From assembly GCA_964594735.1 (NCBI GenBank), contig CAZQMS010000004.1, positions 13,241-77,240 on the forward strand: a stretch of 64,000 bases of DNA. The letters run 5' to 3'. The stretch comes from an uncultured Candidatus Saccharibacteria bacterium. Its GTDB lineage: Bacteria > Patescibacteriota > Minisyncoccia > Phycocordibacterales > UBA2100. Each line of letters starts with the position of its first letter. Within the stretch, counting starts at the first letter, position 1. The notes under the pieces were generated by a model. The model worked only from the letters and a program-made list of their open reading frames with translations. It was not told the DNA's origin and searched no databases. Of this stretch, positions 3,197 to 43,818 are shown in pieces. The position numbers were made by a program, and so were the translations under genes.

Positions 3197-3204
3197 CGCA
3201 GGAG

Positions 3205-3298
3205 TCTACCCCATGAGATAAGAACTCTCAAGAATGTGTGAACATCTCCGAACGTTCTATCTCACGGGGTCTACCCCATGAGATACGTACTCTCAAGG
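3205..3298. repeat. Family-B inverted repeats: CTACCCCATGAGATA (x2) and TATCTCACGGGGT, directly upstream of the tig start codon
   Basis: Seen in sequence. The same motif sits upstream of rnhA, the M50 protease and rpmB. Confidence 0.7.
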
Positions 3299-3323
3299 TG
3301 TGGCGCGCAGCGCGCTGGGCGAT

Positions 3324-11007: not shown

Positions 11008-11077
11008 AAGTATTTTGTATTTAGTATTTGGTATATCGCATGCATACAAGATACGAAATACGAGATACTAGATACTG
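11008..11077. repeat. Hairpin element R2. GTAT heptads x4 are followed directly by ATAC heptads x5. The right arm contains the ATG at 11040.
   Basis: Seen in sequence. The arms are complementary. Confidence 0.7.
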
Positions 11078-13398: not shown

Positions 13399-13499
13399 AG
13401 TATGTGGTATGTAGTATCTAGTATGTTGTCTAGAAGAGAGCGGCGTTCAGCGCGATGCCGGTGCCATACCATATACCGTGTACCAAATACCAAATACTG
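13399..13499. repeat. Hairpin element R3. GTAT heptads at 13399-13428, a 37-nt loop, and ATAC heptads at 13466-13499.
   Basis: Seen in sequence. Confidence 0.7.
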
Positions 13500-19087: not shown

Positions 19088-19093
19088 AGGGAT

Positions 19094-19172
19094 GTGTATG
19101 TTGTATCTAGTATGCCGTACGTAGTATGAAAATTGCGTACAAAATACCAGATACCACATACTATATACTACG
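19094..19172. repeat. Hairpin element R4 (GTAT/GTAC heptads then ATAC heptads) in the divergent HIT/recJ intergenic region
   Basis: Seen in sequence. Confidence 0.65.
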
Positions 19173-27721: not shown

Positions 27722-28138
27722 ATGGCTACGATAAACCAGCTCGCACGCAAAGGACGCAACCCGCGCGTGTACAAATCCAAGACCGGCGCGCTCGCGCGCG
27801 GTTTCAACACGCTCAAGAACCGCCCCTCTTTCTACCCGGCGCCCTTCAAGCGCGGTGTGTGCACTCGCGTCACGACCAAGACGCCTAGGAAGCCCAACTC
27901 CGCCATCCGCAAAATCGCCCGCGTCCGTCTTTCCAATGGTATGGAAATCACCGCCTACATCCCGGGCGAGGGACACAACCTCCAGGAACACTCGGTCGTT
28001 CTCGTGCGCGGTGGTCGCGTGAAAGACATCGGCATCCGTTACACCATCGTGCGCGGTAAGCTCGACGCTACCGGTGTGGAGAAGCGCCGCCGCGGCCGCT
28101 CTCGCTACGGCGCCAAGAAGCCCAAAGCTGCCAAGTAA
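27722..28138 (+). CDS. rpsL: 30S ribosomal protein S12
   Basis: Strongly conserved sequence. Confidence 0.9.
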
Positions 28139-28178
28139 TTTCCTATACCCTACAACCTATTCCCTCTAAAATATCTCT

Positions 28179-28640
28179 ATGCGACGCCCTGTAAAAAATC
28201 GTAAGCAGCCGAATCCCGACGAAGTGTACGGGTCTCTCAAGGTCGCGAAGCTCATCAACTACGTGATGGAGCGCGGCAAAAAGGACACCGCCCGCAAAAT
28301 CGTCTACAAGGTCATGGAAGAGCTCAAGAAAGAGGGCGACCCGGTCGCAATCCTCGAGGAGGCGCTCGACAAGGCAGCTCCGTCGGTAGAAGTACGCTCA
28401 CGCCGCGTGGGAGGTGCCAACTACCAGGTGCCTCGCGAGGTGCGCCCCGAGCGCCGTCTTGCACTTGGCCTGCGCTGGATAGTGGAGGCAGCGGAAGGCA
28501 CGAAGGGCAAGCCGATGGCAGACTCGCTTCTCAAAGAAATCCAGGCAGCATACAAGGGCGAGGGCAGCGCGGTCACCAAGAAGGAAACAACGCACCGCAT
28601 GGCAGAGGCCAACAAGGCTTTTGCCCATTTTGCCTGGTAA
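28179..28640 (+). CDS. rpsG: 30S ribosomal protein S7
   Basis: Strongly conserved sequence. The last ~30 nt are lower in GC than the duplicated copy at 29164-29197. Confidence 0.9.
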   Translation: MRRPVKNRKQPNPDEVYGSLKVAKLINYVMERGKKDTARKIVYKVMEELKKEGDPVAILEEALDKAAPSVEVRSRRVGGANYQVPREVRPERRLALGLRWIVEAAEGTKGKPMADSLLKEIQAAYKGEGSAVTKKETTHRMAEANKAFAHFAW

Positions 28641-28649
28641 GTTAAGAAT

Positions 28650-29156
28650 GTGAAGTACGTTCCTCTTATTGTGGTGGTTTTATTTCTTGCGGCGGGAGGT
28701 TTTTTGATTTGGCAGGAGCAAGCCCTAATGGGAGTCACCCCGGTGATTAAAGTGGCTGAGGAGGAAAATGTTTTAGCACGTGCCTTAGTCGGCGGAGCCG
28801 AGACACGCGAGACCGGTGAGGGCGCAACTAAACAGCACCCGACCATTCAAAGTTACATTCTTGGACCTTCATCTGTCACTGCCGGTACAGCGTGGGAGGG
28901 GGTGATTGTCATGCCGGAGAATTTGGTTGGGAAGTTTAGCCTTCCAGATATCTATTGGGGCGACGGGACTGCTGATAACGATATTTCCGGGACACTTTGG
29001 AAGTATGACGGCACTGATGTTCAGGATAACAAGGTCCGCATTTCTCACACATACAGCAAGCCCGGCGTGTATAAGGTTTTTATGACCATTAATGGTAGTG
29101 GCAAGGAGTTTGCGGCAGGTACAGTCATCCTAAATCCCATCATTACCGCTAAATAA
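28650..29156 (+). CDS. Membrane-anchored PKD-domain protein encoded on a low-GC insert
   Basis: TM helix. PKD motif YWGDGT...HTYSKPGVYKV. Local composition is AT-richer than the surroundings. Confidence 0.6.
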   Translation: MKYVPLIVVVLFLAAGGFLIWQEQALMGVTPVIKVAEEENVLARALVGGAETRETGEGATKQHPTIQSYILGPSSVTAGTAWEGVIVMPENLVGKFSLPDIYWGDGTADNDISGTLWKYDGTDVQDNKVRISHTYSKPGVYKVFMTINGSGKEFAAGTVILNPIITAK

Positions 29157-29163
29157 ATAACCT

Positions 29164-29197
29164 GGCCAACAAGGCATTCGCGCACTTCGCCTGGTAG
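29164..29197 (+). other. Duplicated 3' end of rpsG (GCC AAC AAG GCA TTC GCG CAC TTC GCC TGG TAG encodes ANKAFAHFAW*)
   Basis: Encodes the same ten residues as the end of rpsG using GC-richer synonymous codons. Confidence 0.75.
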
Positions 29198-29218
29198 CTC
29201 AGTAAAGATAAGACAAAT

Positions 29219-29255
29219 AAAACGGCTCAACACGTGTTGAGCCGTTTTGATTTGG
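29219..29255. terminator. Intrinsic terminator AAAACGGCTCAACACGTGTTGAGCCGTTTTGATTT
   Basis: Perfect hairpin followed by a T-run. Confidence 0.7.
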
Positions 29256-29277
29256 TGCTGGACTGCAGCAGCGCAGT

Positions 29278-29529
29278 CTACTGCATGAGCAGGTACTCAA
29301 TCCTGCCGAGCGCCTCATGCGGCGTCACGACGTCGAAGGTATCGAGTGCGTACTGGTGCGCGACGTTTTGAAGCCGTTGGAGCGCTGAATCTGCGCTGTT
29401 GTCGACGCATTTCGACGCGCAGTACGCGAGACTGGTGAGCACGAACGGATCGGCGTACGGCCTCTTGGCCCTTTCGATTTCGTTGAGAACAAATTGGCGG
29501 ATTTTCTCAAGATCCTCTTCGGTGGTCAT
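29278..29529 (-). CDS. Hypothetical protein (83 aa)
   Basis: GGAGAAA-type ribosome-binding site. Lies downstream of the FabA-like gene. Confidence 0.4.
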   Translation of the reverse strand: MTTEEDLEKIRQFVLNEIERAKRPYADPFVLTSLAYCASKCVDNSADSALQRLQNVAHQYALDTFDVVTPHEALGRIEYLLMQ

Positions 29530-29544
29530 GGCATTTCTCCATTG

Positions 29545-30090
29545 TCAGGGGCGAATGAACGCCGTGAGGTCTGAGATTTCACAGACACGGATGTTGTCGC
29601 ATTCCACGTAGCCGTCCGCGACCGCGAACGACCGTTTCGCTGAGACGAGGATCTTCTTCACGTCGATGCGATACTGCACGAGCGATGCACTCGGCAAAAT
29701 CTCACCGAGAAATTTGCTCGGCCCTGCGCCCGTAGCGCGACCCTTGCCTCGAGCGCCGGACCAGCCGGCGAAGAAGCCGGTGAGTTGCCAGAGCGCGTCT
29801 TGCTGCAAACACCCCGGCATCACGGGGTCATCTTTGAAGTGGCAAGCGAAGAACCAGGCGTCGCGGCGGACATCCATCTCCGCGATTGCGTAGCCCTTTT
29901 CGAACGTGCCGCCCTCGTCGCGAATGTCGAGAATGCGGTCAAGCATGCGCATGGGTGAGATGGGCAGTCGAGGCAGATTGCCCCACATGCCCCGGCCGCA
30001 GTACTCGAGTTCGTCGAGGCTGTACGATTCTTTCCTCTGGAACCCCGAGGTGCCCGGCACCCTACCTGAATCATCGAGAAGCATGGTCAT
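29545..30090 (-). CDS. FabA-like 3-hydroxyacyl-ACP dehydratase/isomerase (hot-dog fold)
   Basis: High similarity to E. coli FabA around the active site (DAWFFACHFKDDPVMPGCLQQDALWQL). Confidence 0.75.
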   Translation of the reverse strand: MTMLLDDSGRVPGTSGFQRKESYSLDELEYCGRGMWGNLPRLPISPMRMLDRILDIRDEGGTFEKGYAIAEMDVRRDAWFFACHFKDDPVMPGCLQQDALWQLTGFFAGWSGARGKGRATGAGPSKFLGEILPSASLVQYRIDVKKILVSAKRSFAVADGYVECDNIRVCEISDLTAFIRP

Positions 30091-30205
30091 GGCTTCATCT
30101 CCCTTCGGCCATCCGTTACGGAGCCGTTCTGTCGACGTTATACCGATATGATAGAGGTGTGTCGAGCGCATTTTGCGGCCTGCTGTTTACACGTACTATG
30201 TCCGC

Positions 30206-30871
30206 ATGGCAGAGGTAAAGATTGAGCAGAGTTGGAAGGCGCGGCTTGAGGGGGAGTTCGGGCAAGACTATTTCAAGCAGCTCACTGATTTTGTCCGAGA
30301 AGAGTACAAGCGGGCGGTGGTGTACCCGAATCCGAAGCAGATTTTCCGTGCGTTCGACGAGACGCCATTTGAGAAAGTGAAAGTGGTCATCTTGGGGCAA
30401 GACCCGTATCACGGCGAAGGGCAAGCAAATGGTCTTTGCTTTGCAGTAAATAGCGGTGTGCGACCGCCGCCTTCACTGCAAAATATCTGGAAAGAGATTG
30501 AAGCTGACCTCGGGAAGCCTGCGGTGCGAGACACCGACCTTTCCCGCTGGGCAAGGCAGGGAGTTCTATTATTGAACGCGACACTCACGGTAAATGCCAA
30601 GACACCCGGGAGTCATCAGGGGAAGGGTTGGGAGCAATTTACCGACGCGGCTATCAAGAAGCTGGCAGAGGAGCGCGAGGGCATCGTCTTTATATTGTGG
30701 GGCAACTACGCGCGGCAAAAAGGCGCTCATATAGATAGAGCGAAGCACTTGGTCTTAGAAAGTCCGCACCCGTCACCGTTTTCGGCGCATAGTGGCTTCT
30801 TCGGCTCCAAGCCATTCTCGAAAGCAAATGAGTATCTGCAGGCGCGCGGGGAGAACCCCATCGACTGGTGA
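30206..30871 (+). CDS. ung: Uracil-DNA glycosylase, family 1
   Basis: GQDPYHG and HPSPLSA-like (SPHPSPFSA) motifs. Confidence 0.85.
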   Translation: MAEVKIEQSWKARLEGEFGQDYFKQLTDFVREEYKRAVVYPNPKQIFRAFDETPFEKVKVVILGQDPYHGEGQANGLCFAVNSGVRPPPSLQNIWKEIEADLGKPAVRDTDLSRWARQGVLLLNATLTVNAKTPGSHQGKGWEQFTDAAIKKLAEEREGIVFILWGNYARQKGAHIDRAKHLVLESPHPSPFSAHSGFFGSKPFSKANEYLQARGENPIDW

Positions 30872-30906
30872 CATCCCCTTCTATTCGACGGCCGTCTAAT
30901 AGAGAG

Positions 30907-31455
30907 CTATAGTAGTCGGAACACTTTCCTTAATCGTTCCTCGGACTCAATTTTCTCGAGCACGCCGTACAATATGTATTTCGAGAGGGCCGATTCGCGC
31001 CGTATAAGTTGTATAAGTTCCTCACAATCGTGTGGAAAGATCCAGACACTCTGCTGTAGCTGCACAAAGCCGGCACGCTTCAATATTCCGCGCACTTGGT
31101 TGCGCAATACTCGATATTTCTCGGGGATGTCGAATACAACGATGCGCCACCGGTGGTCCCATCGGGTATCGTTTCGCAAAAGGGCTGCCGTGGAGCGAAT
31201 TGCGCCACCGAGTATATCCGCACCCCTGTCGGTAAGAGAAAGTTTTTGCCCGCGTTCAGTAATGAATTTCAGGTCCTTAAGCCGCTCAATGGCCAACTTC
31301 TTGCGATATCGAAACTGTGCGTGTTCTCGCGCCCGCTTGAACATCAGACGATTAGAGCGAGCAGATAGAAGGAACCCGTACAGCAAATCGCCAGCCGACA
31401 GATCTTCGAGGACGCTTCGTTCTATAGCGCCGAGCCGATGTCTTCGTTTTGCCAT
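30907..31455 (-). CDS. PaaX-family-like transcriptional regulator (wHTH + PaaX_C-like)
   Basis: WRIVVFDIPEKYRVLRNQVRGILKRAGFVQLQQSVWIFP. Confidence 0.5.
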   Translation of the reverse strand: MAKRRHRLGAIERSVLEDLSAGDLLYGFLLSARSNRLMFKRAREHAQFRYRKKLAIERLKDLKFITERGQKLSLTDRGADILGGAIRSTAALLRNDTRWDHRWRIVVFDIPEKYRVLRNQVRGILKRAGFVQLQQSVWIFPHDCEELIQLIRRESALSKYILYGVLEKIESEERLRKVFRLL

Positions 31456-31815
31456 ATATCCATATATTATACGGCCGTCGATTAGAGGGATGTATGAGAT
31501 GTGGATTCTGAAGTATGTGAAGTACGTGCAGGGTGGCCTTTCGAGTGGTAAGAAGCGGGCTTCAGCGGAGTCTCATAGGGGCACGTCCATGATGCGCCTA
31601 TGTCACTCTTCTCGATTTTCGTCATATTCCTGCTCGTCGCTGTCTTCGGCACGCTCATCGCCGTGGCGATAGATGAAGAGTTTTGGCTCTAGTGAGGCTT
31701 GTATTTTCGCCCCCAATCCGTTACATTGTGCACACCTGCCTGCGCAGGCAGGCGCCCAAAAGAGGTTTAGCGGGGCTCCGCCAGCCGGCGGATATTTTTT
31801 TAAACAATACATACT

Positions 31816-33957
31816 ATGAGCAGAGATTACCCCCTCGAGAAGGTCCGCAACTTCGGCATCGTCGCACACGTCGACGCGGGCAAGACGACCACGTCGGAGC
31901 GCATCCTCTACTACACCGGCGAGAGCCACAAAATAGGTGAAGTGCACGAGGGCAACACGGTTACCGACTGGATGGAACAGGAGCGTGAGCGCGGTATCAC
32001 CATCACCGCCGCGGCCATCACGTGTTTCTGGAATCCCTCGTACATGGGTGCCGATACATCTTTCAAGCATCGCTTCAACATCATCGACACGCCGGGTCAC
32101 ATCGACTTCACGTCGGAAGTGAAGCGCTCAATGCGCGTACTCGACGGTGCAGTCGTCGTATTTGACGGTGTCGCGGGCGTGGAGCCTCAGTCGGAGACCA
32201 ACTGGCGCTACGCGGAGGAAGCCGAGGTGCCCAGAATCTGCTACATCAACAAGCTCGACCGCACCGGCGCTTCATTTGAAAAGTCGTATGCTTCGATTCT
32301 CGACCGCCTCTCGACGAAAGCAGTCCGTCTCCAGATACCGATCGGCCTCGAAGACCAGTTCGAAGCGGTCATCGATGTTCTCGAGATGAAAGCGTATCGC
32401 TTCGAGGGTGAGATGGGCAAGAACGTCGTACCATTCGAGATTCCGGATCAGTACAAGGCCGATGCGGAGAAGTATCACAACGAAATCGTCGAGCGCATCG
32501 TCGAGACTGACGACGCACTTATGGCCGAGTTCCTCGACGGCAAGAAGCCCTCTCTTGAGGTGCTCAAAAAGGCGCTTCGCCAGGCCGTCGTCACCAACAA
32601 GATTTTCCCCGTCCTCACCGGCAGCAGTCTCAAGAACAAGGGTGTGCAGCGCGTGCTCGATGCGGTCGTCGACTACCTCCCGTCTCCGCTCGACCTGCCC
32701 CAGGCTCGCGGTATCAACCCCGACACTGGCGCAGAAGAGACACGCCCAGCCGACGACTCGGCGCCCTTTGCCGCGCTCGCATTCAAGCTCCAGGTGGACC
32801 CATTCGTCGGTGCGCTGACATTCTTCCGCGTCTACTCGGGCACCATCAATACGGGTGACACTGTCTACAACTCTGCCAACAACAAAAAGGAGCGCATCGG
32901 CCGTATGGTGCGCCTCCAGGCAGACAAGCGCGAGGAAATCAAATCTGTCCATGCGGGCGAAATCGCTGCCGTGGTGGGCATGAAAGAGGTGAAAATCGGC
33001 CACACGCTCTGTGTCGCGGATCACCCGATTATTCTCGAGAGCATCGTCTTTCCTGAGCCAGTGGTTTCGATGCGTGTCGAGCCGAAGACCAAGGCCGACC
33101 AGGAGAAAATGGGTATCGCACTCTCCAAGCTCTCCGACGAAGACCCGACGTTCCGCGTCCACTCCGACCCTGAGACGATGGAGACGATTATCTCGGGCAT
33201 GGGTGAGCTGCACCTCGACATCATCGTCGACCGCATGAAGCGCGAATTTGCCGTGGAGGCGACGACGGGCAAGCCGCAGGTTGCGTACCGCGAGACTATC
33301 CAGGGCACCGCGGATGTCGAGTACAAACACATCAAGCAGACAGGCGGTCGCGGTCAGTACGGCCACGTGAAAATCAAGGTCAAGCCGCTCGAACCGATTG
33401 TCGAAGGCGAGAAGGTCAAGAACAACGTCGACCGCGAAGACCACTTCGAATTCATCAACAACATCAAGGGCGGCGTCATCCCGCAGGAGTACATTCAGCC
33501 GGTCAAAAAAGGTCTCAAGGAGGGTATGGAGCGCGGTGTCCTCGCCGGCTTCCCGATGGTCGATGTGTCTGTCGACCTCTACGACGGCAGCTACCACGAC
33601 GTCGACTCATCCGAAATCGCATTCAAACTCGCTGCGCTCAATGCGTTTCAAGACGCGGTACAGAAGGCGAAGCCCGTCATTCTCGAACCGATTATGAAGC
33701 TCGAAGTCGTCATGCCAGAGAAATTCATGGGCGACGTGACCGGCATGATCAACTCGAAGCGCGGCACCATCGAAGCGATGGGTGAGCGCGGCCAGGCACG
33801 CGTCGTCACTGCCAAAGTCCCGCTCTCAGAAATGTTCGGCTTCACCACGCAGCTTCGCTCGCTCACCGAAGGTCGCGGTGTCCCGAACCTCGAATTCAGT
33901 CACTACGCGGTCGTGCCGCGCAACGTCCAGGAGGAAATCGTTTCGTCAAGAAAATAG
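31816..33957 (+). CDS. fusA: Elongation factor G
   Basis: Strongly conserved sequence over its full length. Confidence 0.95.
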
Positions 33958-34085
33958 ACACGTCTGCCACAAGGGCACTTCCGCCGAGATTTTCCAGCAG
34001 GCCCAACTGCTAGGAAAATCCAAGTGCAGTCGCTGCTGCGAGCTGCCATTTCACTAACGTCGAGTACGACGAAGTGAAATTGGTC

Positions 34086-34112
34086 GCAGGACGAAATCGT
34101 TGCGTCCAGAAA
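34086..34112 (+). other. Duplicated 3' end of fusA (GAC GAA ATC GTT GCG TCC AGA AAG TAA encodes DEIVASRK*)
   Basis: Compare the fusA end EEIVSSRK*. About 130 nt downstream of the fusA stop. GC-richer codons. Confidence 0.6.
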
Positions 34113-34145
34113 GTAAAAGAAACCCGGGCTTAGCCCGGGTTTCTT
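34113..34145. terminator. Bidirectional terminator AAGAAACCCGGGCTTAGCCCGGGTTTCTTTTAT
   Basis: Perfect hairpin with flanking A and T runs. Confidence 0.7.
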
Positions 34146-34478
34146 TTATGCGATGATGTCGGTGCCGAAGATCTCCACGTATTGCTCGTCGGTTAGATAC
34201 TCTGCGAGCGTGAGCTTCACACCCACCAAGAGTCCATACACTTCATGTGGGTCTGAATGTTCCAATTCCTTTGCCATGAGGTAGTCAATATATCCTGCCA
34301 CCTGCGCTCGCAGAGTCTCGAGCCCTGCCCGCTTGGCTTCATTGGGTACGCCTTTTCCGCCGCGACCTTCTATCGCCACGTCGAGTGCGCGCACTGCCGC
34401 CTCGACATCTTTTTTTACCTGAGCCTTTCCTTCGAGCTCTTCGCGGTTGCGTATGGGGATGATTTTCTCGAAGGACAT
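34146..34478 (-). CDS. Hypothetical protein (110 aa)
   Basis: Plausible ORF with consistent codon usage. Confidence 0.45.
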   Translation of the reverse strand: MSFEKIIPIRNREELEGKAQVKKDVEAAVRALDVAIEGRGGKGVPNEAKRAGLETLRAQVAGYIDYLMAKELEHSDPHEVYGLLVGVKLTLAEYLTDEQYVEIFGTDIIA

Positions 34479-34626
34479 ACTCAGATGATATCACCTTCGA
34501 CTCAGTGCATAGTTTCGCACGCACCATACTGCAATACTGCCGCGGGGTACGCCGCGGCGTTTACAGCGAGGGAGGGGTGTATAAGTCGTGATCGCGCTAC
34601 ATGCATACAGCTATAATGAACGTATG

Positions 34627-35112
34627 GAGATGACTCGAAAAGACGTGTACCTCGGCACAGGTGCAATCATTGTCATCGTCGTGTGCACATACCTGCTCTA
34701 TACAGATGGACAATTCGTAAAGATGGAGAGCGAAGATACTGCTCTGGTAGAAGAGGTGCCCGCGATGACGGCTCTCATGAAAGAGGTGCTCGAGAAAAGC
34801 ACAGGATTCCAGTTGCTCGTCTCATACACCGATGGCGGGTTCCAGCCCTCACATGCGTCTATCAAGCGGGGCGATACAGTCCGCTTCACCAACAACTCCT
34901 CCGGCGAAGTCTGGGTATCTGCTGCAGCGGTACACAACGGCAACATTTTTCCCGGCGGGCCGAGTTCGTGCGGACAGAGTGCGTTTGATTCGTGCACAGC
35001 GCTCCAGCCGAAGGAATTTTGGGAGTTTACTTTTGATGAATCAGGGACGTGGGGCTACATCAATGTCGCGAATCCCACACACGATGCCGCGCTTGAAGTC
35101 GTCGCACTGTAG
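34627..35112 (+). CDS. Membrane-anchored cupredoxin-like protein. Paralog of 56449..56880.
   Basis: TM anchor followed by a beta-rich domain (IKRGDTVRFTNNSSGEVWV). Confidence 0.5.
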   Translation, partial: EMTRKDVYLGTGAIIVIVVCTYLLYTDGQFVKMESEDTALVEEVPAMTALMKEVLEKSTGFQLLVSYTDGGFQPSHASIKRGDTVRFTNNSSGEVWVSAAAVHNGNIFPGGPSSCGQSAFDSCTALQPKEFWEFTFDESGTWGYINVANPTHDAALEVVAL

Positions 35113-35131
35113 TGCGTGTTAGGATTTCAAA

Positions 35132-36628
35132 GTGTCACCAGTAAAAAAATCTGCGCTCTGGATTCTCCTTGCTTTCCTCTCGCTTGCCGCGGGATATTTA
35201 GGGTACAGCTCGTACCTCGGGTACCTCGATTACAAAGCTGCTCAGGCGGAGGAGGCAGCGCGCCAGCAGATATACGCGCTCAATCGGACCACGCTTATCG
35301 AAGCGCTCTCGCGCGAGGGCGTAGGGGCAGACGAGTTGGTACGCGGCTTTTGGTACTCATACCGCGATGCTTCAGGAGGAGAAAGCGTCGGGCGTTTCGA
35401 TCTCGACACGCTTGCATGGAACGAATTGCTCGCGGCAGAGTACGTCGCCATGCTCGCATCCCGTGTCGGTGATGCGTATCGCGTCCCGCCGACTTCCATG
35501 CGCTACTTAGAGAATGAAGAATTGCCGGAAAAGCTGCAGTTCCACAATGCGCTGTACAATCCGCGCCAGCCAGGCGCGTTCCAGGGTACGCAGCAGCAGC
35601 TAGAGAGCGCGTACGCGTCGGGGGACGCGACCTCAGAAGAGCTCTGGCAGCTCGCATACACCTACGAACTGCGCGGCGAGTACGAGAAGCGCGACGAATT
35701 GAACAAGGCTAATTGCAGGCTCTTCAAAGAGCGTTGCGGCGGCGATGTGCGGATTCGCGCTTTTGGGCGAGTCGTCGACACCGATGGTCGGCCTGTGCAG
35801 GCCGCCACGGTGGAAGTGCTCAGTGCGGACGGTGCCTCGGTAGATACCAACGAAGAAGGAGAGTTTGAACTCACTCTCACGGTAGATGAAATGGAAAAAG
35901 TCCGCATCGAGGCGAGCAAGCGCAACTTTTCTTCCGGTGTCGCGAGTATCGTGGTGGTCTCCGCCGGCAAGTCCGCATACGACGTAGGGGATATTGTGCT
36001 CGGTTCACCTGTCACGATTATCACGCTCGATACTGCACGCCGCACCGTGTCCGATCCCGCGAGCGAGGCGCGACCCGACGGTAGCTTCGTCTTGCGCGCT
36101 GATGTGAGCGAATACATCATCCCGCCGGGAGCCATCGTGCGCGCCGACGGCACGCCGTACCGCGGGGCAGTCGACGCGTACATATATGAGTTCGACCGCG
36201 ATACGGTACCCGCGAACCTCGTCACGCTCGACATTTTTGACGAGGTGTACGGTTACACCGGCGACCTCATGCTCACCTTCGGGATGCCGTTCATACAATT
36301 CTTTACGCTCGATGGTGAACGGCTCGACGTACTATCGCGTACCCCGATGCTTCTTACGTACAAATTCCCGCACTTCGACAAAATGCTCACCAACGAGGAC
36401 GGTATCTTGAATGCCGGGGTGACTACGGCTGAAGTCGATACATTGATTGCCGCATCGCGTGGGAAAACGGATTTCCCTATAACCTCAGGGTTCCTCTTTG
36501 CGAATGCTATCCACAGCTTCCCACCCTTCTGGGTCATGGATAGAAAGAGTGGCGTGTGGGACAATGTCGGCATACGGATGCTCGACAACGAGGGCACGAT
36601 ACAAGCACCCTTTTATACGGCTAAATAG
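35132..36628 (+). CDS. Secreted or membrane-anchored protein with a CarboxypepD_reg-like domain
   Basis: N-terminal TM or signal peptide. RIRAFGRVVDTDGRPVQAATVEVL. Confidence 0.55.
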   Translation: MSPVKKSALWILLAFLSLAAGYLGYSSYLGYLDYKAAQAEEAARQQIYALNRTTLIEALSREGVGADELVRGFWYSYRDASGGESVGRFDLDTLAWNELLAAEYVAMLASRVGDAYRVPPTSMRYLENEELPEKLQFHNALYNPRQPGAFQGTQQQLESAYASGDATSEELWQLAYTYELRGEYEKRDELNKANCRLFKERCGGDVRIRAFGRVVDTDGRPVQAATVEVLSADGASVDTNEEGEFELTLTVDEMEKVRIEASKRNFSSGVASIVVVSAGKSAYDVGDIVLGSPVTIITLDTARRTVSDPASEARPDGSFVLRADVSEYIIPPGAIVRADGTPYRGAVDAYIYEFDRDTVPANLVTLDIFDEVYGYTGDLMLTFGMPFIQFFTLDGERLDVLSRTPMLLTYKFPHFDKMLTNEDGILNAGVTTAEVDTLIAASRGKTDFPITSGFLFANAIHSFPPFWVMDRKSGVWDNVGIRMLDNEGTIQAPFYTAK

Positions 36629-36633
36629 TACCC

Positions 36634-37443
36634 ATGAGAGATTGGCTTAATGGATTCTCAGAGCAGCACCTTGGCACGCTTACCAATGTGCTCGCGCTCC
36701 TGGTCGCGGCTCTTGCGATTTTCACTGGATTTAGCTTGGCTCGCGGCAACGTCGACATCCCATGCTGGAACGTGAGCACGACGCGAGAAGAGGGCGGTTC
36801 GTGCACGGGCGGTTCCTGGACGACATGGTCGACCACCGCTGAAGACGGCACGACGGTGACGGAGCGCCGTGTGTACACCGGAGTTCTCAACACCGTGAGC
36901 GCCGTGATTACCTACAATACCTGCGGTGGTATCTCGAACAATTCCGCGGCCAACATAACGTCGCAGAGCTCCGCATGTCAGATAGAAGAGACGCGTACCA
37001 GGTCCGGCACCGGCTCTGGTGGGAGCGGCGGTTCGGGCTCTGGGAGCGGTTTTGAAATCCTCTCGTACAACACACAGCAGACCGTGGGCGACATCATCAG
37101 CACGATGAATGTGCAGGGCACTGTGAGTGACTTCAATGATTTCGTCGAGGCACGACTCGCCACATCCAGCATTCGCGCCATACCGATGCTCGTGCGCAGC
37201 GGGGAGACGACGCGTATCGTGTGGGATTCTGAATACGTCAGGCTCTGTCGCGTGACCGGAACCAACGGCGACAGCTGGCCGCTACCGGTCGGTGGACAAT
37301 TGCCGGTAGCGCTCTCAGGCGACGAAACTTCGGCTCCTATCGTGCAGCAGACCACCTACACGCTCGCGTGCACGACGGCACTCGGCAACATAATTGGCGG
37401 TGACGTGATCGTAAACATCATCCCGACGTTCAACGAACAATAG
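36634..37443 (+). CDS. Secreted protein with the shared C-terminal ~90-aa domain (ends IIPTFNEQ)
   Basis: C-terminal similarity to 37845..38870 and 56884..58092. Confidence 0.55.
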   Translation: MRDWLNGFSEQHLGTLTNVLALLVAALAIFTGFSLARGNVDIPCWNVSTTREEGGSCTGGSWTTWSTTAEDGTTVTERRVYTGVLNTVSAVITYNTCGGISNNSAANITSQSSACQIEETRTRSGTGSGGSGGSGSGSGFEILSYNTQQTVGDIISTMNVQGTVSDFNDFVEARLATSSIRAIPMLVRSGETTRIVWDSEYVRLCRVTGTNGDSWPLPVGGQLPVALSGDETSAPIVQQTTYTLACTTALGNIIGGDVIVNIIPTFNEQ

Positions 37444-37557
37444 TAGTAGACGCGTGTTTCAGAGCCTCCGTCGCGCTTTGCGGCGGGGGCTCTGTGTAAT
37501 CCCCGAGCGATTGCGTGTCCGCAGAAGACGCAGGCGGCGGTGCGATAGAATACGTGT

Positions 37558-37842
37558 GTGGCCCGATTCTTGCACTCTCTGCGGTTTCCACTTCTTGCTC
37601 TCGCAGCACTGCTTTCAGTTATCGCGATTCTCTATGCAGTCCTCACGCTCATGAGTGGAGTCGAAGAGACGCCAGAGGCGGGCGAGCTGACGTACGAGCA
37701 AAAGATGGAAATCCTCACGTCGCTTCGCGGTGGGGAGAATATCCCGCTCGATAGGAGAGAGAATACACTTTCTGCGATTGAAGAAGCCCCGGAACCGCTC
37801 AGCAGCGATGAAAAGATGAACATTCTCCGTGGTCTCAAATAA
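37558..37842 (+). CDS. Small membrane protein (GTG start, uncertain)
   Basis: One TM segment followed by an acidic tail. Confidence 0.3.
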   Translation: MARFLHSLRFPLLALAALLSVIAILYAVLTLMSGVEETPEAGELTYEQKMEILTSLRGGENIPLDRRENTLSAIEEAPEPLSSDEKMNILRGLK

Positions 37843-37844
37843 AT

Positions 37845-38870
37845 ATGCGTTCTACTAAGCAGCTTACGGTCGTCGGCATGCTCGTGGGCGCACTCACGAT
37901 TGGCAGCATGTTCGCTCTCGCCCCATCGGCAGAATCCCAGGCGAGCGGCGGCACCGTAGCGGGTTATGCGTGGAGCGATACCATTGGCTGGATTTCGCTC
38001 AATTGCAGCAATCACAGCTCGTGCGGGACGGTGAGCTACGGACTGCAGGTCGACGCCGACGGCGTGCTTTCCGGAAAAGCGTGGAGCGAAAACATCGGGT
38101 GGGTGAGCGCTGATATTACCGATCTTCTCGGATGTCCCGACGGTGGCTGCTCCGCTCGATTCGAGGGCGATGAACTTACGGGCTGGCTGAAAGCTCTCTC
38201 TGGCGGTTCGTCGCAAAGCGGAGGCTGGGACGGATTCATCTCCCTCTCGGGCTCGAGTCCAAGCTACGGCCCCACCCTTTCGTCCGGCACTTTTTCCGGG
38301 TACGCATGGGGAGACACCAATGTCGGCTGGATCGATTTCTCTTTTGCCACGAGCGATTTCGTACCCGATGTGTGTCTCAACCTGCCTGGCGTGCAGCCTG
38401 CTGCGCCAAGTGGATACTACGAAGAAGATGGGCAGTGCCTCGTACAGTGCAATGTCGCGCACAGTTGCTTGGGTCAGACGATTCAGAAGACCGAAGCGAA
38501 CTGCGCTGTCATCAACGTGACGACATGCGTGGCGCCGCTCTTTTGTGTCGCGGGCTCTGCGGTGTGCCTCTCGCCGAGCCCCGTCTTCAACCCGGGTGCA
38601 GGTCTCTCCGGACACCTGCAGGCGCGCCCGCTCATTCTCCCAACTGGCGCTAGGACGCGCTTGCATTGGGATGTGGGCAATGTTGAGAGTTGCTCAGTGA
38701 CAGGAAGCAACGGCGATTCGTGGTCGGGTGTGGCATCGGGCGCGTCGGGACAGGAGACAAGCCCTATCCTGCAAGTCACGACATTTACTCTTACGTGCGT
38801 GAAGTTCGACGAAGCGACTTTCTCAGAAAGTGTGTCGGTGACCGTGTTGCCAGTCTTTAGGGAGATATAA
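37845..38870 (+). CDS. Secreted protein with the shared C-terminal domain (ends VLPVFREI)
   Basis: Signal peptide. Cys-rich middle region. Conserved C-terminus. Confidence 0.55.
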   Translation: MRSTKQLTVVGMLVGALTIGSMFALAPSAESQASGGTVAGYAWSDTIGWISLNCSNHSSCGTVSYGLQVDADGVLSGKAWSENIGWVSADITDLLGCPDGGCSARFEGDELTGWLKALSGGSSQSGGWDGFISLSGSSPSYGPTLSSGTFSGYAWGDTNVGWIDFSFATSDFVPDVCLNLPGVQPAAPSGYYEEDGQCLVQCNVAHSCLGQTIQKTEANCAVINVTTCVAPLFCVAGSAVCLSPSPVFNPGAGLSGHLQARPLILPTGARTRLHWDVGNVESCSVTGSNGDSWSGVASGASGQETSPILQVTTFTLTCVKFDEATFSESVSVTVLPVFREI

Positions 38871-38882
38871 TAAAAGCTACGT

Positions 38883-39788
38883 ATGCATACCATCTCATCA
38901 CGCCAACTCTTCCTCCTCCTTTTTAGTCTCTTCGCGCTCCTCTTCGCGGCGAGCGCTCTGTTCGCATGGTCAGGTCCCTCCTCTTCCGCGCCAAACGGCA
39001 ACGCTGCAGCACCGGTGAACGTTGGAGTGGACGCTCAGATAAAGGACGGTCGTCTTGGCCTCGACGCGCTCGCGGTCTATGGTTCGCAGTACATACAGAG
39101 CAAGCTTGGCATTGGCTACGAATTGCCCGTCGTGGCACTCGACATCAACGGAAGTCTCAAACTCGGGAATGGGCGCGAAGTGTGCCAGGCGGTTTCCGCC
39201 GGTGGGCTGCGTTACAACAGCAGCGACGCGGTCGTCGAGTACTGCGATGGCGATGAGTGGACTCCACTCGGAGGTGGCACAGTTGGTCCCGTGCAGACGC
39301 AGACGTACACGAGTCCGGGTTCGCGAACGTTCACGGTTCCGGCATCATTCAATGTCTTGTTTGTGCACGTCGGCGGTGGTGGAGGTGGGGGTGGAGGTGG
39401 GGGTGGCGCAGGTGCCGGTGGCACTGGAACAGCCGGTCTACAGTCTTCCTTCGGTAGTGTGATTGCATACGGCGGCGGCGGCGGCTCAGGATGTCAGGCA
39501 AGGGGAGCAGTCCCCTATGGCGGCACCTCTGGAGCCGACGGCACCTCCACAGGCGGAGATGTCAACAGGGTAGGCGGCGGCGGGACGAGCGGGTCTCCTG
39601 GAAATTGTTCAACTTCAATCGCTGGTCGGGGAGGTGCAGGAGGAACAGCGATAAAAATCTACACCCCGACGACTTTGACGCCGGGCAGTCCGGTGAGTGT
39701 ATCTGTAGGCAGAGGCGGTTCGTTAGGGTCGAGTATCTATGGGGGTTCAGCTGGCGGCGCGGGTTTCGTGAGGATTTGGTGGCAGTAA
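38883..39788 (+). CDS. Glycine-rich secreted protein. Paralog of 1..820.
   Basis: Signal peptide. N-domain AWSGP...QIKDG.LG.DALAVYGSQYIQ...YCDGDEWT. RTFTVPASFNVLFVHVGGGGGGGGGGGG. Confidence 0.6.
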   Translation: MHTISSRQLFLLLFSLFALLFAASALFAWSGPSSSAPNGNAAAPVNVGVDAQIKDGRLGLDALAVYGSQYIQSKLGIGYELPVVALDINGSLKLGNGREVCQAVSAGGLRYNSSDAVVEYCDGDEWTPLGGGTVGPVQTQTYTSPGSRTFTVPASFNVLFVHVGGGGGGGGGGGGAGAGGTGTAGLQSSFGSVIAYGGGGGSGCQARGAVPYGGTSGADGTSTGGDVNRVGGGGTSGSPGNCSTSIAGRGGAGGTAIKIYTPTTLTPGSPVSVSVGRGGSLGSSIYGGSAGGAGFVRIWWQ

Positions 39789-39791
39789 TGT

Positions 39792-40172
39792 ATGCGACGT
39801 ATTCGCATCGATGCCACAGTAGCGTTTGCCGTCGCGGGGGCGTTGCTGCTCAGCGCGAGTCTCGTGTACGCGTGGACGGGGCCAGTCTCGCTGAGTACAT
39901 CCGTACCGGCGCCGGTTACTCTACTTTCTGAGGAACAGATTAAAGACGGCGCGCTCGGCGTCGACAGTCTCGCGGTATACGGCTCGCAGTACATTCAAGG
40001 CACGCTCGGCATCGGTGTCGCGTCGACAACTTTTGCAGTGGATGTCGCCGGCACGCTCCGACTTGGCAACGGGGGAGAGACCTGTGCCGCGGGCATGGCG
40101 GGGGCACTGCGGTACGAGAGCGCGTCGGCGCGCATACAGTACTGCGACGGCGACTCCTGGACAGCAATCTAG
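39792..40172 (+). CDS. Secreted protein comprising only the N-terminal domain of the glycine-rich family
   Basis: Clear similarity to residues ~25-125 of 38883..39788. Confidence 0.5.
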   Translation: MRRIRIDATVAFAVAGALLLSASLVYAWTGPVSLSTSVPAPVTLLSEEQIKDGALGVDSLAVYGSQYIQGTLGIGVASTTFAVDVAGTLRLGNGGETCAAGMAGALRYESASARIQYCDGDSWTAI

Positions 40173-40412
40173 CAGCCCGTCTCGCTTGACGGTCAAGACC
40201 ACTTTGTTACACTGCCCCCACGCACGCTCTGTGCGCCTGCCTGCTGGCAGGCAGGTATTCTTCCGCCTAATTTTCTTCGCGCGGCCTAGCGACCCGCACA
40301 GCAGCGAAGGAAGCTAAACGGAAAAATCCCAGGGCACCCAAACGCGTTGGCACAATTATTAGTGGTCTGTTAGCTAGTCCCTAACAGCTACAAGCTATAA
40401 GCTATTAATCAT

Positions 40413-41612
<1,200 letters not shown>

Positions 41613-41646
41613 CACCGATGCTTCGCTCCGCCAGCTGGCGGACCGC

Positions 41647-41697
41647 GAAGGCGGCAAGACAGTTGGAGCGGGCGTCGTGACCAAAATCACCGTCTAA
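41647..41697 (+). other. Duplicated 3' end of tuf (encodes [16 protein letters not shown]). It is preceded by the palindrome TCCGCCAGCTGGCGGACC at ~41627-41643.
   Basis: Compare the tuf end [18 protein letters not shown]-richer synonymous codons. Confidence 0.75.
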
Positions 41698-41756
41698 GCC
41701 AACGTTTCCCGTAGCCTCCCGCTGCACAGAAAACCCGCCAGCAATGGCGGGTTTTC

Positions 41757-42392
41757 TTATTCCGATTGAGAACGGAGAACGCCTTTTACAACTCCACAAA
41801 TCCGGAAGTTTTCACCTGTGGTAACCTCGATATCTTCGTATTTTTCCTCTGGATTAGTCGACTGAAGCAAGATGTGTTGGCGTTTCTCGTTGAAGAACAA
41901 TTTCTTCACCCGCTTTATCATTGGCATGTCTTCGTAAACCACGACGGCAATTTTCCCACTATCAACATCTGACTGAATATGTGCAAGTACAAGGTCACCT
42001 TCGTGAATCAACGGCTCCATCGATTGACCCTTGGCTTTTATTAAGAAGAAATGTGATGGGTGGGCGATACCGAACATCTTCGTGGCCATTGGGACCCGGT
42101 CGATAATGTCGTCTTCAGCAAAGGTTCCGTTGGGGCCACACTGAGCAGTGGCGCGATAAAGGTTTATGTAAGCGATGTCCGAAACCGGAGTCTTTAGTAT
42201 CCGATACTCTTTCGGCGCAACCTCGCGTACGAGCCCTTTCTTTTGGAGCTGATCTAAGTGGTGGGCGACTATCTGAGCCCGGTCGTCGATACCTAGAGCC
42301 GTTCCGATGTCACGTAAGGAAAGTTCACGTAGGTCGCCCTTTCGCTTTCGGATAAGATTAAGCAGTGCGTTCTGAGTAGGGTGGAGCCTCAT
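41757..42392 (-). CDS. lexA: LexA-like S24 peptidase repressor
   Basis: wHTH N-domain. S24 motifs (KGQSMEPLIHEGDLV, IKRVKK). Confidence 0.7.
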   Translation of the reverse strand: MRLHPTQNALLNLIRKRKGDLRELSLRDIGTALGIDDRAQIVAHHLDQLQKKGLVREVAPKEYRILKTPVSDIAYINLYRATAQCGPNGTFAEDDIIDRVPMATKMFGIAHPSHFFLIKAKGQSMEPLIHEGDLVLAHIQSDVDSGKIAVVVYEDMPMIKRVKKLFFNEKRQHILLQSTNPEEKYEDIEVTTGENFRICGVVKGVLRSQSE

Positions 42393-42779
42393 ATCATTAT
42401 TTTGGCTTAAAACCGACCCTATCACAACTTGCGTGTGTGGACAATGAAGCGTCGTCCAGGAAAACTTGACAAAAGAAGCGACCTCGATTATACTTACTGC
42501 AACACGACCCAACGCCCCTACGAGAGTTAGTGCGCTCGTGCCGTGATTATCAGACTAAGTCAAACACTCCATGAGTAAGGAATCCAAGACCTCTTTGAGG
42601 GGTCGAGATGCTCGAACAGGTGAGTTCACCACAGTCGAGAAAGCTCGCAATAACCCCGCCACTCACGTTGTCGAACGCGTCCCGAAGCCGGGACACGGCG
42701 ACACGGACTAACGTCATGCGATGAGCAGCGGCGACGCATGTCGCCGCTGCTTTGAGGATTAATATTATTGTAAAGAAAC

Positions 42780-43361
42780 ATGGCAAGAAAGTGTTTTATC
42801 TCCCTCAAAACGGAGGACATGCTTTATAAAGAAGCCATCCAGAAACTGGGTGTCGATATGGTCGATAAATCGCTCGATAATCCTATCGAGTCCGATGACG
42901 AGGATTACATCATGCGCCGCATACGCGACGAGAACCTTTCAGACTCTACGGTCACGATTTTTCTCATTGGTCAACGGAGTGCCGAGGCGCTCGGCGCACA
43001 CGAACAGAGGTTCATAAAGCGTGAACTCCAGGCCTCACTTTATGACGGAGAGAACAATCCGAGAAGTGGCATTCTTGGCGTGGTGCTCCCTTCGATGACA
43101 CAGGCGGTATTTCGCGGCTCAGGTGGTTGCAGTGGTTGCAGAGAGCACATTGGTATTGTTCACGCGAATGACAGTACCATGATTAAGGAGTTCCATAAGA
43201 ATTACTATACGAAAGACGACCAATGTCATCATGGGGAAGACGAGCGCTACTGTGTCCTTGTTTCTTGGGACGATTTCATCGTGGAACCAGAAAAATACAT
43301 CGAACAAGCGTATGCTAAAAGAGAACATCCCATCTCGCAGAGCGTCAGAGTTCGACCATAA
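42780..43361 (+). CDS. TIR-like domain protein (ThsB / DUF1863-like)
   Basis: Matches the ThsB-like pattern: N-terminal ARKCFISLKTED, then VTIFLIGQRSAE..RFIKRELQAS...GILGVVLP. Confidence 0.65.
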   Translation: MARKCFISLKTEDMLYKEAIQKLGVDMVDKSLDNPIESDDEDYIMRRIRDENLSDSTVTIFLIGQRSAEALGAHEQRFIKRELQASLYDGENNPRSGILGVVLPSMTQAVFRGSGGCSGCREHIGIVHANDSTMIKEFHKNYYTKDDQCHHGEDERYCVLVSWDDFIVEPEKYIEQAYAKREHPISQSVRVRP

Positions 43362-43362
43362 T

Positions 43363-43818
43363 ATGTCTGAAACACCTGGGATCGCAAATAATGAACCGAA
43401 TTCGGGCTATGGTCGCCTTGAGGAACAGATTCGCTGGTATGATCAAAAGTCCGTAAGTGCGCAGGCTTGGTACAAGAATACAAAATTTATTGAGATGGTT
43501 TGCGCCGTTGCGTTACCCCTGGCCGCCGTTTATGAATTCAATATCGTATCCGTTGGACTCGGCGCTATCATAGTGCTGCTTGAGAGCTTGCAGCACTTGA
43601 ATCAATGGTCTCAAAACTGGGTCATGTATCGTTCGACCTGCGAGGCTCTTCGTCACGAGAAATACGCATACATGGGACGCACGGGTATGTATGACGTGAA
43701 AAATGATGAAGAAGCAAAGAAGATTCTTGTTTCGCAGGTGGAAACACTTGTCTCAACCGAGCACTCAAAGTGGAATTCACGACAAGAGTACGAAACGCAT
43801 CGAGGGAATCGGGGCTAA
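43363..43818 (+). CDS. SLATT-like (DUF4231) 2-TM effector domain protein, translationally coupled to the TIR-like gene
   Basis: LEEQIRWYDQKSVSAQAWYKNTKFIEMVCAVALPLAAV followed by a second TM segment. ATG 1 nt after the upstream TAA. Confidence 0.6.
   Translation: MSETPGIANNEPNSGYGRLEEQIRWYDQKSVSAQAWYKNTKFIEMVCAVALPLAAVYEFNIVSVGLGAIIVLLESLQHLNQWSQNWVMYRSTCEALRHEKYAYMGRTGMYDVKNDEEAKKILVSQVETLVSTEHSKWNSRQEYETHRGNRG

Follow-up and report, generated by a model that had tools for sequence, protein, structure and literature searches.

Bacteria of the Candidate Phyla Radiation (CPR, or Patescibacteria) have tiny genomes with few recognisable mobile elements, and little is understood of how they come by strain-specific genes for surface proteins and defence. 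Here we describe an insertion into the 3' end of rpsG, the gene for ribosomal protein S7, in a stretch of 64,000 nt from an uncultured Candidatus Saccharibacteria bacterium (GenBank assembly GCA_964594735.1, contig CAZQMS010000004.1, positions 13,241 to 77,240; "the window", to which all coordinates refer unless a lineage is named). The inserted DNA carries a small open reading frame (ORF), ORF168, and a synonymous copy of the end of rpsG. Such an anatomy is known in kind, from elements that rebuild the 3' end of the gene they enter, from accretion trails at tRNA genes, and from the replacement of C-termini in mitochondria. Prochlorococcus tycheposons, which form islands by accretion at tRNA genes, reportedly also reuse a conserved gene end and leave partial copies of it between cargo genes in a streamlined genome; they are said to have tRNA targets and to encode integrases or transposases, whereas the ends reused here are protein-coding and differ synonymously. 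The mobile open reading frames (mORFs) of the fungal mitochondria of Allomyces macrogynus and Glomus sp. have the same order of parts as our locus, namely a gene core, a foreign C-terminal piece, an ORF, and a displaced native C-terminal remnant (PMC3630166). There, as here, the native remnant fits close relatives, the inserted piece is divergent and nearly synonymous, and several genes per genome are affected. Streptococcal integrative and conjugative elements (ICE), integrative and mobilizable elements (IME), and cis-mobilizable elements (CIME) at rpsI, rpmG, rplL, and fda are likewise flanked by direct repeats, one of them over the end of a ribosomal-protein gene; they supply a new gene end, and tandem accretion is possible (PMC5357655, PMC4701971). 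Integron arrays appear partly similar in their compact, mostly promoterless and mostly co-oriented cassettes behind a strongly expressed unit, with the newest cassette nearest the entry point, and in their toxin-antitoxin cassettes. Finally, homology-facilitated illegitimate recombination (HFIR) and single crossovers share with our locus the capture of DNA through one-sided homology with no element-borne enzyme, and crossover with a circle duplicates a segment (PMC3240628). The system described below lacks features that define integrons, classical integrative elements, and homing-endonuclease elements, and partly works like each. Its combination of tiny recombinase-less cassettes, arrays, several essential translation genes per genome, and recurrence within a CPR clade appears to be undescribed; no account of such a combination was found in the literature searched, a recent study of gene exchange in Patescibacteria included.

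In the window, rpsG (153 aa; Pfam Ribosomal_S7, E = 1.9e-50) occupies 28179..28640 on the plus strand. Its final 34 nt (28607-28640) recur at 29164-29197 with 28/34 nt matching, and a repeat search returned the pair 28607-28639 and 29164-29196 (33 nt, 85% identity). The initial 12 nt of both tails, GGCCAACAAGGC (left copy 28607..28618), are identical. All six differences (five mismatches and TAA/TAG) fall at third codon positions, and either tail encodes the peptide ANKAFAHFAW*. A repeat in synonymous register had been claimed in a first-pass annotation made from the sequence alone, and the alignment bears this out; the spacing of about 520 nt given there is in fact a start-to-start distance of 557 nt. 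In a position matrix derived from 55 different genuine rpsG tails, the downstream rpsG copy scored 34-54 bits, whereas no control position exceeded 13.6 bits (688,894 positions on the upstream plus strand and the whole minus strand of 70 loci).

A 557-bp segment has been inserted within the final 34 nt of rpsG. It consists of the 22-nt gene end now in use (28619-28640; rich in A and T at third codon positions, T TTT GCC CAT TTT GCC TGG TAA), a 9-nt spacer (GTTAAGAAT, 28641..28649) from the S7 stop to the GTG start of ORF168, ORF168 itself (28650..29156), and 7 nt (ATAACCT, 29157..29163) that lead from the ORF168 stop to the displaced tail and form the right edge of the insert; all are on the plus strand. 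Since the insert comes with a synonymous gene end, the S7 protein sequence is unchanged. The original rpsG end, GGCCAACAAGGC ATTCGCGCACTTCGCCTGGTAG (29164..29197, plus strand), which is out of frame with both rpsG and ORF168, has been displaced downstream together with the operon terminator (29219..29254, plus strand). This native rpsL-rpsG terminator has a perfect 13-bp stem followed by Ts (29219-29248; dG -23.7 kcal/mol, z -6.2), in line with the strong terminator first annotated here, and would now close an rpsL-rpsG-ORF168 transcript. ORF168, 9 nt past the S7 stop, is accordingly placed as the predicted last gene of the rpsL-rpsG transcription unit. An insertion into the 3' end of rpsG that supplies a replacement end and holds no integrase, as first proposed, describes this anatomy well: S7 is intact, the native tail is displaced, and ORF168 is the sole gene of the insert. 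The 12-nt block GGCCAACAAGGC would be the sole possible site of exchange between the two window copies. The insert was also correctly described as AT-richer, the GC content being 48.6% in 28641-29163, 59.4% in rpsL-rpsG, and 57.3% in the window. The GC content at third codon positions (GC3) is 0.51 in ORF168 and 0.72-0.78 in rpsL, rpsG, and fusA; among window genes (mean 0.65, sd 0.10) the value of ORF168 is low but not extreme.

An assembler that joined two strain variants of the rpsG end in tandem could have produced this picture, and the source is indeed a metagenome-assembled genome, with the related strains L081 and L083 both present in run SRR15237806. However, the shared block of 12 nt is shorter than assembler k-mers, the co-occurring strain differs by 13% in rpsG, and the independent Logan assembly of SRR15237806 is identical base for base to window 28009-31908 (3.9 kb). 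Equivalent structures further recur in assemblies from different samples. We regard an assembly artefact as extremely improbable.

ORF168 is a 168-codon ORF (GTG at 28650, stop at 29156) with an N-terminal hydrophobic anchor and a divergent PKD-like domain. The first-pass annotation had named its product a membrane-anchored PKD-domain protein. The anchor stands, and so does the kinship with proteins that pass Pfam PKD; the protein's own scores against the PKD families tested (PF00801 / PF18911) fall below the gathering threshold (PKD_4 22.2 bits, cutoff 27; PKD 15.4 bits, cutoff 23.5). An exhaustive HMMER search yielded 783 relatives at E < 0.001, among them multi-PKD proteins as well as small anchored ones of a single domain that pass Pfam PKD. 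Membership is assigned through such homologues, of which P0127 scores 41 bits for PKD and P0122 has 14 PKD repeats, and "membrane-anchored PKD-like protein" seems a reasonable name for ORF168. Since the homologue alignments begin at ORF168 residues 2-12, the GTG start is favoured over the shorter annotated form. The exact protein occurs in one other contig only, which is identical to the window and comes from one sample. Beyond this contig, neither a donor nor a second context of ORF168 was found, and no relative exceeded 50% identity. Homology to the 164-aa ORF at the same position in lineage L088 was ruled out, as the two show no similarity.

To identify the native copy we turned to related loci, which were gathered through S7 homologues with contig look-ups and through an N-terminal query. 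The S7 relatives of the window belong to the Paceibacterota/Kaiserbacteria part of the CPR. In the closest of them (S7 96-98% identical, DNA about 87%) rpsG terminates in GCATTCGC(C/G/T)CACTT(C/T)GC(C/G)TGGTA(A/G). Over the 21 nt compared, the five closest lineages have tails 1-3 nt away from the displaced tail and 4-6 nt away from the working one. L113 has exactly the working tail, and the tails of L094, L109, L114, L130, L136, and L137 are at most 1 nt away from it; in these lineages, L113 included, the gene bodies are only 74-84% identical to the window rpsG. Codon choice follows the same division. In rpsL, rpsG, and fusA together, TTC is preferred 26:6 and CAC 17:2; the working tail has TTT, CAT, and TTT, and TTT accounts for 5/5 phenylalanine codons of ORF168. 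The downstream copy is therefore the original rpsG end, and the working end a replacement that came with the insert. The former is taken as native because it matches the tails of close relatives and because the ancestral terminator comes after it, the latter as foreign because it fits the tails of distant lineages and uses rare codons also favoured by ORF168. The first-pass annotation had likewise taken the GC-rich downstream copy for the original.

The displaced tail, the terminator, and a reverse-strand gene of 83 aa are common to the window and L095, and are degraded in L088. At the same rpsG position L095 has a 40-nt hairpin and L088 an unrelated membrane protein of 164 aa. As the displaced tail of the window is still intact, the insertion is recent relative to the split from these relatives. 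Relatives free of the insert, a comparison suggested in the first-pass annotation, do exist: L082/L083 (S7 98% identity) and L084 have neither ORF168 nor a second tail, and L083 derives from SRR15237806, the same run as the window's twin contig. In L107 and L115, fusA starts 4-6 nt past the rpsG stop, which makes the whole 3.2-kb rpsG-fusA interval of the window secondary. A scan of GTDB representative genomes for empty sites was dominated by universal S7 motifs, the best match being 65% identical. A mosaic rpsG was rejected, as there is no long foreign tract upstream of the tail and mismatches to relatives are evenly spread over the gene.

The scar is recurrent. Of 53 distinct rpsG lineages of the clade with at least 100 nt of downstream sequence, 18 carry extra same-strand rpsG tails downstream of rpsG (24 tails, 1-3 each; a prevalence among related lineages), and the 688,894 control positions gave 0 matches for such tails. 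In L100/L103, for example, tails and cassettes form an array in the order tail-c1-tail-c2-tail-c3-tail. Between the tails lie cassettes with HicA/HicB and ParE (ParDE) toxin-antitoxin pairs, with a PaaX-like gene, or with one of many small membrane proteins that belong to no family. Part of the cassette ORFs come from mechanical ORF calling; the 20 put through a Pfam screen matched HicA/HicB, ParE, PaaX_M, or nothing. The inserts of L143, L155, and L177 were inspected by eye only, and the cassette ORF of L155 looks AAA ATPase-like on that basis. Inserts overall measure 20-1200 bp; the short ones (16-130 nt) are mainly hairpins, and many have no cargo. The same structures were present in separate assemblies (L088-L092 from five JGI samples, L096-L099 from four, and L100/L103).

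The cassettes are tightly packed. In 10 lineages the first ORF starts exactly 9 nt past the S7 stop, and most of these ORFs are mutually unrelated (the window, 28641-28649, L088, L100, L105, L119, L125, L126, L136, L141, and L147); the uniform spacing suggests tight translational coupling to rpsG. The 9-nt spacers are mostly purine-rich. Cassette stops lie 0-12 nt ahead of the displaced tail, and cassettes contain very little non-coding DNA. Some are reverse-strand, for example the PaaX-like gene of L121. Among 155 ORFs in rpsG-fusA gaps, 101 have no relative among the rest. The segments common to different hosts (UDG, FabA-like, PaaX-like, and the 83-aa gene) show identities no higher than that of rpsG. 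Compact cassettes appear from these comparisons to stack behind conserved translation genes in this CPR clade, trails of old tails accumulating because every new arrival displaces the previous gene end.

Three further window genes, fusA, tuf, and an uncharacterised minus-strand ORF, have their 9-18 final codons repeated downstream. The fusA event spans 33931..34150 on the plus strand, with the working tail QEEIVSSRK* (33931-33957), a structured insert of 129 nt, the displaced tail QDEIVASRK* (34087-34116), and the terminator (34117-34150). At tuf (41559..41760, plus strand) a working tail (41559-41612) is followed by an insert of only 31 nt (41613-41643) with the hairpin TCCGCCAGCTGGCGGA, the displaced tail (41644-41697), and the terminator. 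Here 14 of the 18 codons, stop included, differ between the copies, and 13 of these changes keep the residue or the stop. At the end of ORF 3271-3822(-) the event lies within 3201..3297 on the minus strand: a 32-nt tail (within 3266-3297) is found again 35 nt downstream (within 3201-3232) at 91% identity. Elsewhere, scars were found at fusA (L082, L105, L054, L171, and L177), at an rpmB-like gene (L149 and L155), at UDG (L143), and at a 291-aa ORF (L119). The fusA duplication in L105 is about 78 nt long, and a toxin-antitoxin-like pair was identified there by eye. Working tail, insert, displaced tail, and native terminator follow one another in this order at every locus. The loci were gathered through rpsG, so that rates at other genes are underestimated. 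The first-pass annotation had considered the insert a remnant or a non-autonomous element. Since the scar recurs across lineages and genes, at rpsG in 18/53 lineages and at the further genes above, the insert is one case of a general, recurrent process and no lone remnant of an rpsG-specific integrative element.

Working and displaced copies were compared codon by codon over the 24 displaced copies, yielding 7, 8, and 78 differences at codon positions 1, 2, and 3. With 78/93 differences at third positions, both copies have evolved as coding sequence, which speaks against local duplication followed by drift. The working copy had more A and T at third positions than the displaced one at 11 loci and fewer at 2, with 5 ties (sign test p = 0.02). 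Pooled GC3 was 0.58 in working tails, 0.79 in displaced tails, and 0.68 in the 60 codons upstream. The corresponding values for tuf are 3/17, 12/17, and 0.85, and those for fusA of L105, with identical peptides, are 14/25, 23/25, and 0.83. As the stretch of foreign composition is the duplicated stretch, each insert would have arrived with its own copy of exactly the gene part that it displaced.

These data bear on the hypothesis that the tails were duplicated in place, locally or by template switching at a terminator hairpin, after which the working copy was recoded or the second copy was kept for a role of its own in RNA structure or translation initiation. Near-identical pairs would fit such an origin (L112 35/36, L155 94/96, L119 25/27, and L143 59/60), as would the tuf insert hairpin, which resembles the tuf terminator, and the seven lineages with an inverted "anti-tail" able to pair with the tail, the two co-varying in L158. 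However, a neutral copy should decay at all codon positions and not mainly at the third. The unconstrained displaced copy lies near the clade consensus and it is the constrained working copy that holds the changes, and at tuf the recoding of 14/18 codons stops short of a gene body that keeps its high GC3. The window and most events lack the anti-tail. A simple tandem duplication of tail and terminator was rejected separately, because only the tuf hairpins are alike and the sequences after the two copies are otherwise unrelated. Duplication in place is, on this evidence, very improbable.

The geometry of the events is variable. Duplicated lengths vary between 17 and 96 nt. Left boundaries fall at different points within about 80 nt of rpsG, from about 96 to 17 nt before the stop, so that a single fixed junction was rejected. 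The longest identical block between copies measures 3-89 nt (12 at window rpsG, 5 at window tuf, 5 in L095, and 3 at fusA of L082). Judged by these blocks, many tail pairs are probably too diverged for RecA exchange with each other, and the shortest, as the sequences now stand, would offer no tyrosine-recombinase overlap. Tyrosine recombinases require an identical core of at least about 6-8 bp, serine recombinases one of only 2 bp.

Such measurements matter for site-specific integration, the mechanism implied when the repeats were first annotated as attL/attR-like. The element would be small and non-autonomous, or a CIME-like remnant, with the final 34 nt of rpsG in its attP, a crossover within the 12-nt core, and an integrase acting in trans or since lost. 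The layout of attL, cargo, and attR is exact in the window, with the 12-nt core at the left of the repeat, followed by the element-type gene end. Accretion at integrase sites typically leaves tandem trails of partial target copies, and compact cassettes with toxin-antitoxin cargo are element-like. A Pfam screen of 20 cassette ORFs and 18 neighbouring window ORFs turned up no integrase, which counts against the hypothesis; a CIME-type derivative lacks an integrase by definition, however, so that this absence is compatible with a CIME. Tyrosine integrases are known to enter the 3' ends of streptococcal ribosomal protein genes (PMC5357655, PMC4701971). Yet the streptococcal elements are kilobases long, encode a tyrosine or serine integrase, use one site per family, and have near-identical att cores, whereas the inserts described here are 20-1200 bp long, come with no detected integrase, and have several targets, duplications of variable length, and sometimes very divergent repeats. 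With at least 5-6 scarred genes, four of them in the 64-kb window, as many site specificities would be needed, and a single target site per family is at odds with insertions at rpsG, fusA, tuf, an rpmB-like gene, UDG, and two uncharacterised ORFs. Nor do the duplications of 17-96 nt share a left boundary. In some pairs no more than 3-6 nt in a row are identical, which, in the present state of the sequences, leaves too little for a tyrosine-recombinase overlap. Many inserts are 16-130-nt hairpins without cargo. The attL/attR reading is thus unproven, and we consider site-specific integration rather unlikely.

The 20 cassette ORFs and 18 neighbouring ORFs likewise yielded no transposase and no homing endonuclease. 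Viral contigs scanned with two tail patterns and ORF168 contained no S7 tail; a phage- or virus-borne attP was rejected, as the only two matches were due to chance and had no S7 context. A transposon target-site duplication does not fit, since the duplications are 17-96 nt long and often synonymously divergent, and terminal inverted repeats are lacking. A diversity-generating retroelement was dismissed because only 1/6 differences lies at an A of the downstream copy and no reverse transcriptase is encoded among the neighbours. Rfam families and a tRNA or tmRNA target were dismissed as well, there being no Rfam match in the window or in 10 loci, and no tRNA genes.

The same screen bears on homing-like replacement of gene ends, in which an endonuclease, encoded elsewhere or lost, would cut a conserved 3' end, and repair would copy a recoded, resistant end together with the adjacent DNA. 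The layout is identical to that of the atp6, atp9, cox2, and nad3 hybrids of Allomyces and Glomus (PMC3630166). The targets are highly conserved genes, and the recoded stretch begins where the duplication begins, as expected for copying from a break. In contrast, the mORF inserts encode the LAGLIDADG or GIY-YIG homing endonucleases that drive the event (PMC3630166), and neither these nor HNH were found in the Pfam-screened cassettes. The cargo here is a PKD-like membrane protein or, in relatives, toxin-antitoxin pairs, membrane proteins, and hairpins, on a bacterial chromosome and in stacked arrays. Left boundaries spread over about 80 nt of rpsG are also not those of one cleavage site. Homing is an improbable explanation for the scars.

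The hypothesis that we favour, with a confidence somewhat short of even, is that foreign DNA was captured by recombination anchored on the conserved gene, and that this process is recurrent in the present CPR clade. The insert would have been copied or recombined from another lineage, where it already followed that conserved gene directly, so that this gene supplied the homology by which the foreign DNA was captured. Capture might proceed by one-ended invasion or break repair on the foreign template, or by a Campbell-type single crossover of a circularised fragment, and the far side would be joined again within the gene end of the recipient. Selection would spare only products with a complete gene and its downstream signals. 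One-sided recombination usually causes deletion, and duplication would be seen instead because recombinants with a damaged essential gene or damaged signals are selected out. Once formed, a tail-cassette-tail unit may spread by natural transformation, its tails serving as portable homology arms, and cassettes may be lost by tail-by-tail deletion. No cassette-encoded recombinase would be required. The hairpin inserts are perhaps donor terminators that were copied before synthesis stopped, although this is speculation. Capture by way of the conserved gene would account for the hot spots at conserved genes, for foreign tails limited to the duplicated stretch, for the variable geometry, for the lack of an enzyme gene, and for inserts that are only hairpins. 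All of these steps go beyond the anatomy and are inferred from it.

Several background observations are in keeping with capture. DNA uptake has been proposed in Patescibacteria, where acquired genes are enriched in ribosomal proteins and tuf (PMC12455944), and a single crossover with a circular molecule is known to duplicate the homologous segment (PMC3240628). A gene for ComEC (competence) lies a few kb upstream in close relatives; the genes upstream of rpsL encode an M50 peptidase, L28, a metallo-beta-lactamase-fold protein, SOD, and ComEC. Other results weigh against it. No donor lineage with ORF168 behind rpsG was found, and in our sample no cassette was shared by diverged hosts above the identity of rpsG itself, so that mobility is deduced from the scars. 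The 18 lineages with extra tails are related and do not stand for as many independent events. The extreme compactness of the cassettes, with ten starts at 9 nt and stops 0-12 nt from the tail, resembles that of defined units. Several tail pairs are too diverged for a RecA-dependent crossover, and tail-by-tail spread cannot cover every event. Classical HFIR, moreover, typically deletes about 1 kb of recipient DNA, whereas recipient sequence is duplicated here (PMC3240628). The absence of a deletion might be explained by selection against the loss of essential neighbours.

One further possibility is a dedicated cassette-capture system in the clade, with entry at the last codons of essential, highly expressed genes (rpsG, fusA, tuf, and rpmB), promoterless cassettes stacked behind them, and the gene end rebuilt each time. 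We give this possibility a low but appreciable probability. Functionally, such a system would amount to an integron that lacks intI and attC, and it would be one of the chief ways in which genomes with few apparent mobile elements acquire genes. Its resemblance to integrons is limited by the genes upstream of rpsL, which include no intI beside the entry point, and by the nature of the repeat, which copies a coding tail directly; hairpins with core sites, as in attC, are lacking, and no conserved hairpin or core motif marks the cassette ends. If a dedicated enzyme is at work, it would constitute a new recombination system, useful for engineering CPR bacteria that are hard to manipulate. If there is none, the loci would clearly illustrate, from nature, how homologous capture on one side is moulded by the selection that acts on essential neighbours. 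In either case the 3' ends of the most conserved CPR genes are recurrent entry points for gene gain. Each displaced gene end is the fossil of an entry, providing a sequence-only way to find recent gains, to order arrays, and to ask for the donor lineage. A new gene placed behind a strongly expressed operon and before its terminator would probably also have its expression problem solved.

Beyond the scars themselves, the rpsL-rpsG-fusA-tuf cluster of the window is interrupted by accessory genes at 28640-31816 (3.2 kb) and 33957-40413 (6.4 kb). Those identified are FabA-like, UDG, and PaaX-like genes and a gene for an Ig-like/CarboxypepD_reg protein, some on the opposite strand. The rpsG-fusA gap measures 58-3398 nt in GTDB Paceibacterota and about 6-280 nt (mostly <100) in other phyla. 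The PaaX_M gene of the window (Cas2-like fold; 30907-31455, minus strand) is flanked by 35-nt inverted repeats (30877-31489) with 80% complementarity, each containing the palindrome ACGGCCGT. PaaX-like genes are recurrent in the rpsG-fusA gap of relatives, and in L121 such a gene has a displaced rpsG tail on either side.

In seven lineages a conserved element of about 75 nt directly follows rpsG (L094 3749-3826, L114 6463-6540, L139 449-526, L158 1145-1225, L113 1442-1516, L109 2301-2394, and L137 945-1074). It contains a hairpin with three compensatory pairs, the anti-tail GCAAAATGG, and a displaced partial tail. The anti-tail is complementary to the working rpsG tail, and in L158 the tail CATTTCGC and the anti-tail GCGAAATG co-vary. 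The window lacks this element, which had no Rfam match and may be a structured RNA that encloses the S7 stop codon. An inverted tail copy as a general feature was rejected, since it was significant in one rpsG element family only. A mini-ORF reading into the displaced tail of short elements was also rejected, the frame being not conserved in L113 and L137.

Small GC-rich hairpin inserts with the motif CCCGTAGCC (CCGCAGCC in L121) occur inside displaced rpsG tails, always between ...ATGGC(N)GA and GCCAAC (L100 7620-7680, L121 2860-2915, L104 ~4910-4975, and L095 787-830). The L095 insert lacks the motif CCCGTAGCC and resembles the others only at its two ends. Similar GC-rich hairpin inserts follow fusA in L082 (10271-10330) and the displaced tuf tail in the window (41698-41726). 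Together they look like a family of tiny repeated elements.

A second repeat family of about 63 nt, AAAAAACGGCTTAA-TCCGCCAGCTGGCGGA-CCCCAAGAAATCAAAAGACCGCGG, occupies intergenic positions between 43822 and 54448 of the window, with copies at 44999, 47374, 48026, 49024, and 50201 and partial copies at 43822, 44374, and 54395. These repeats separate small, mostly unrelated accessory genes, which were mostly read by eye. Their hairpin TCCGCCAGCTGGCGGA is the one found in the tuf insert (41613-41643), and a variant lies just before fusA (31777-31792). Immediately downstream of tuf, ahead of the repeats, are genes for a LexA-like repressor (41757-42512, minus strand), a ThsB-type TIR protein (42780-43361), and a SLATT/DUF4231 membrane protein (43231-43818), and the group (41757-43818) looks like a small defence island.

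The sole non-CPR case of a repeated gene end comes from an uncultured gammaproteobacterium (L046 9860-9990). The final ~14 codons of its tuf gene are repeated 11 nt past the stop, directly before the terminator, with synonymous differences and a 6-nt insertion. Lastly, a 26-nt repeat, AGTATTTTGTATGTAGTATTTGGTAT, is present in the window in six copies, partly in tandem and apparently at gene boundaries (9311-9350, 11009-11034, 13399-13424, and 19088-19127).

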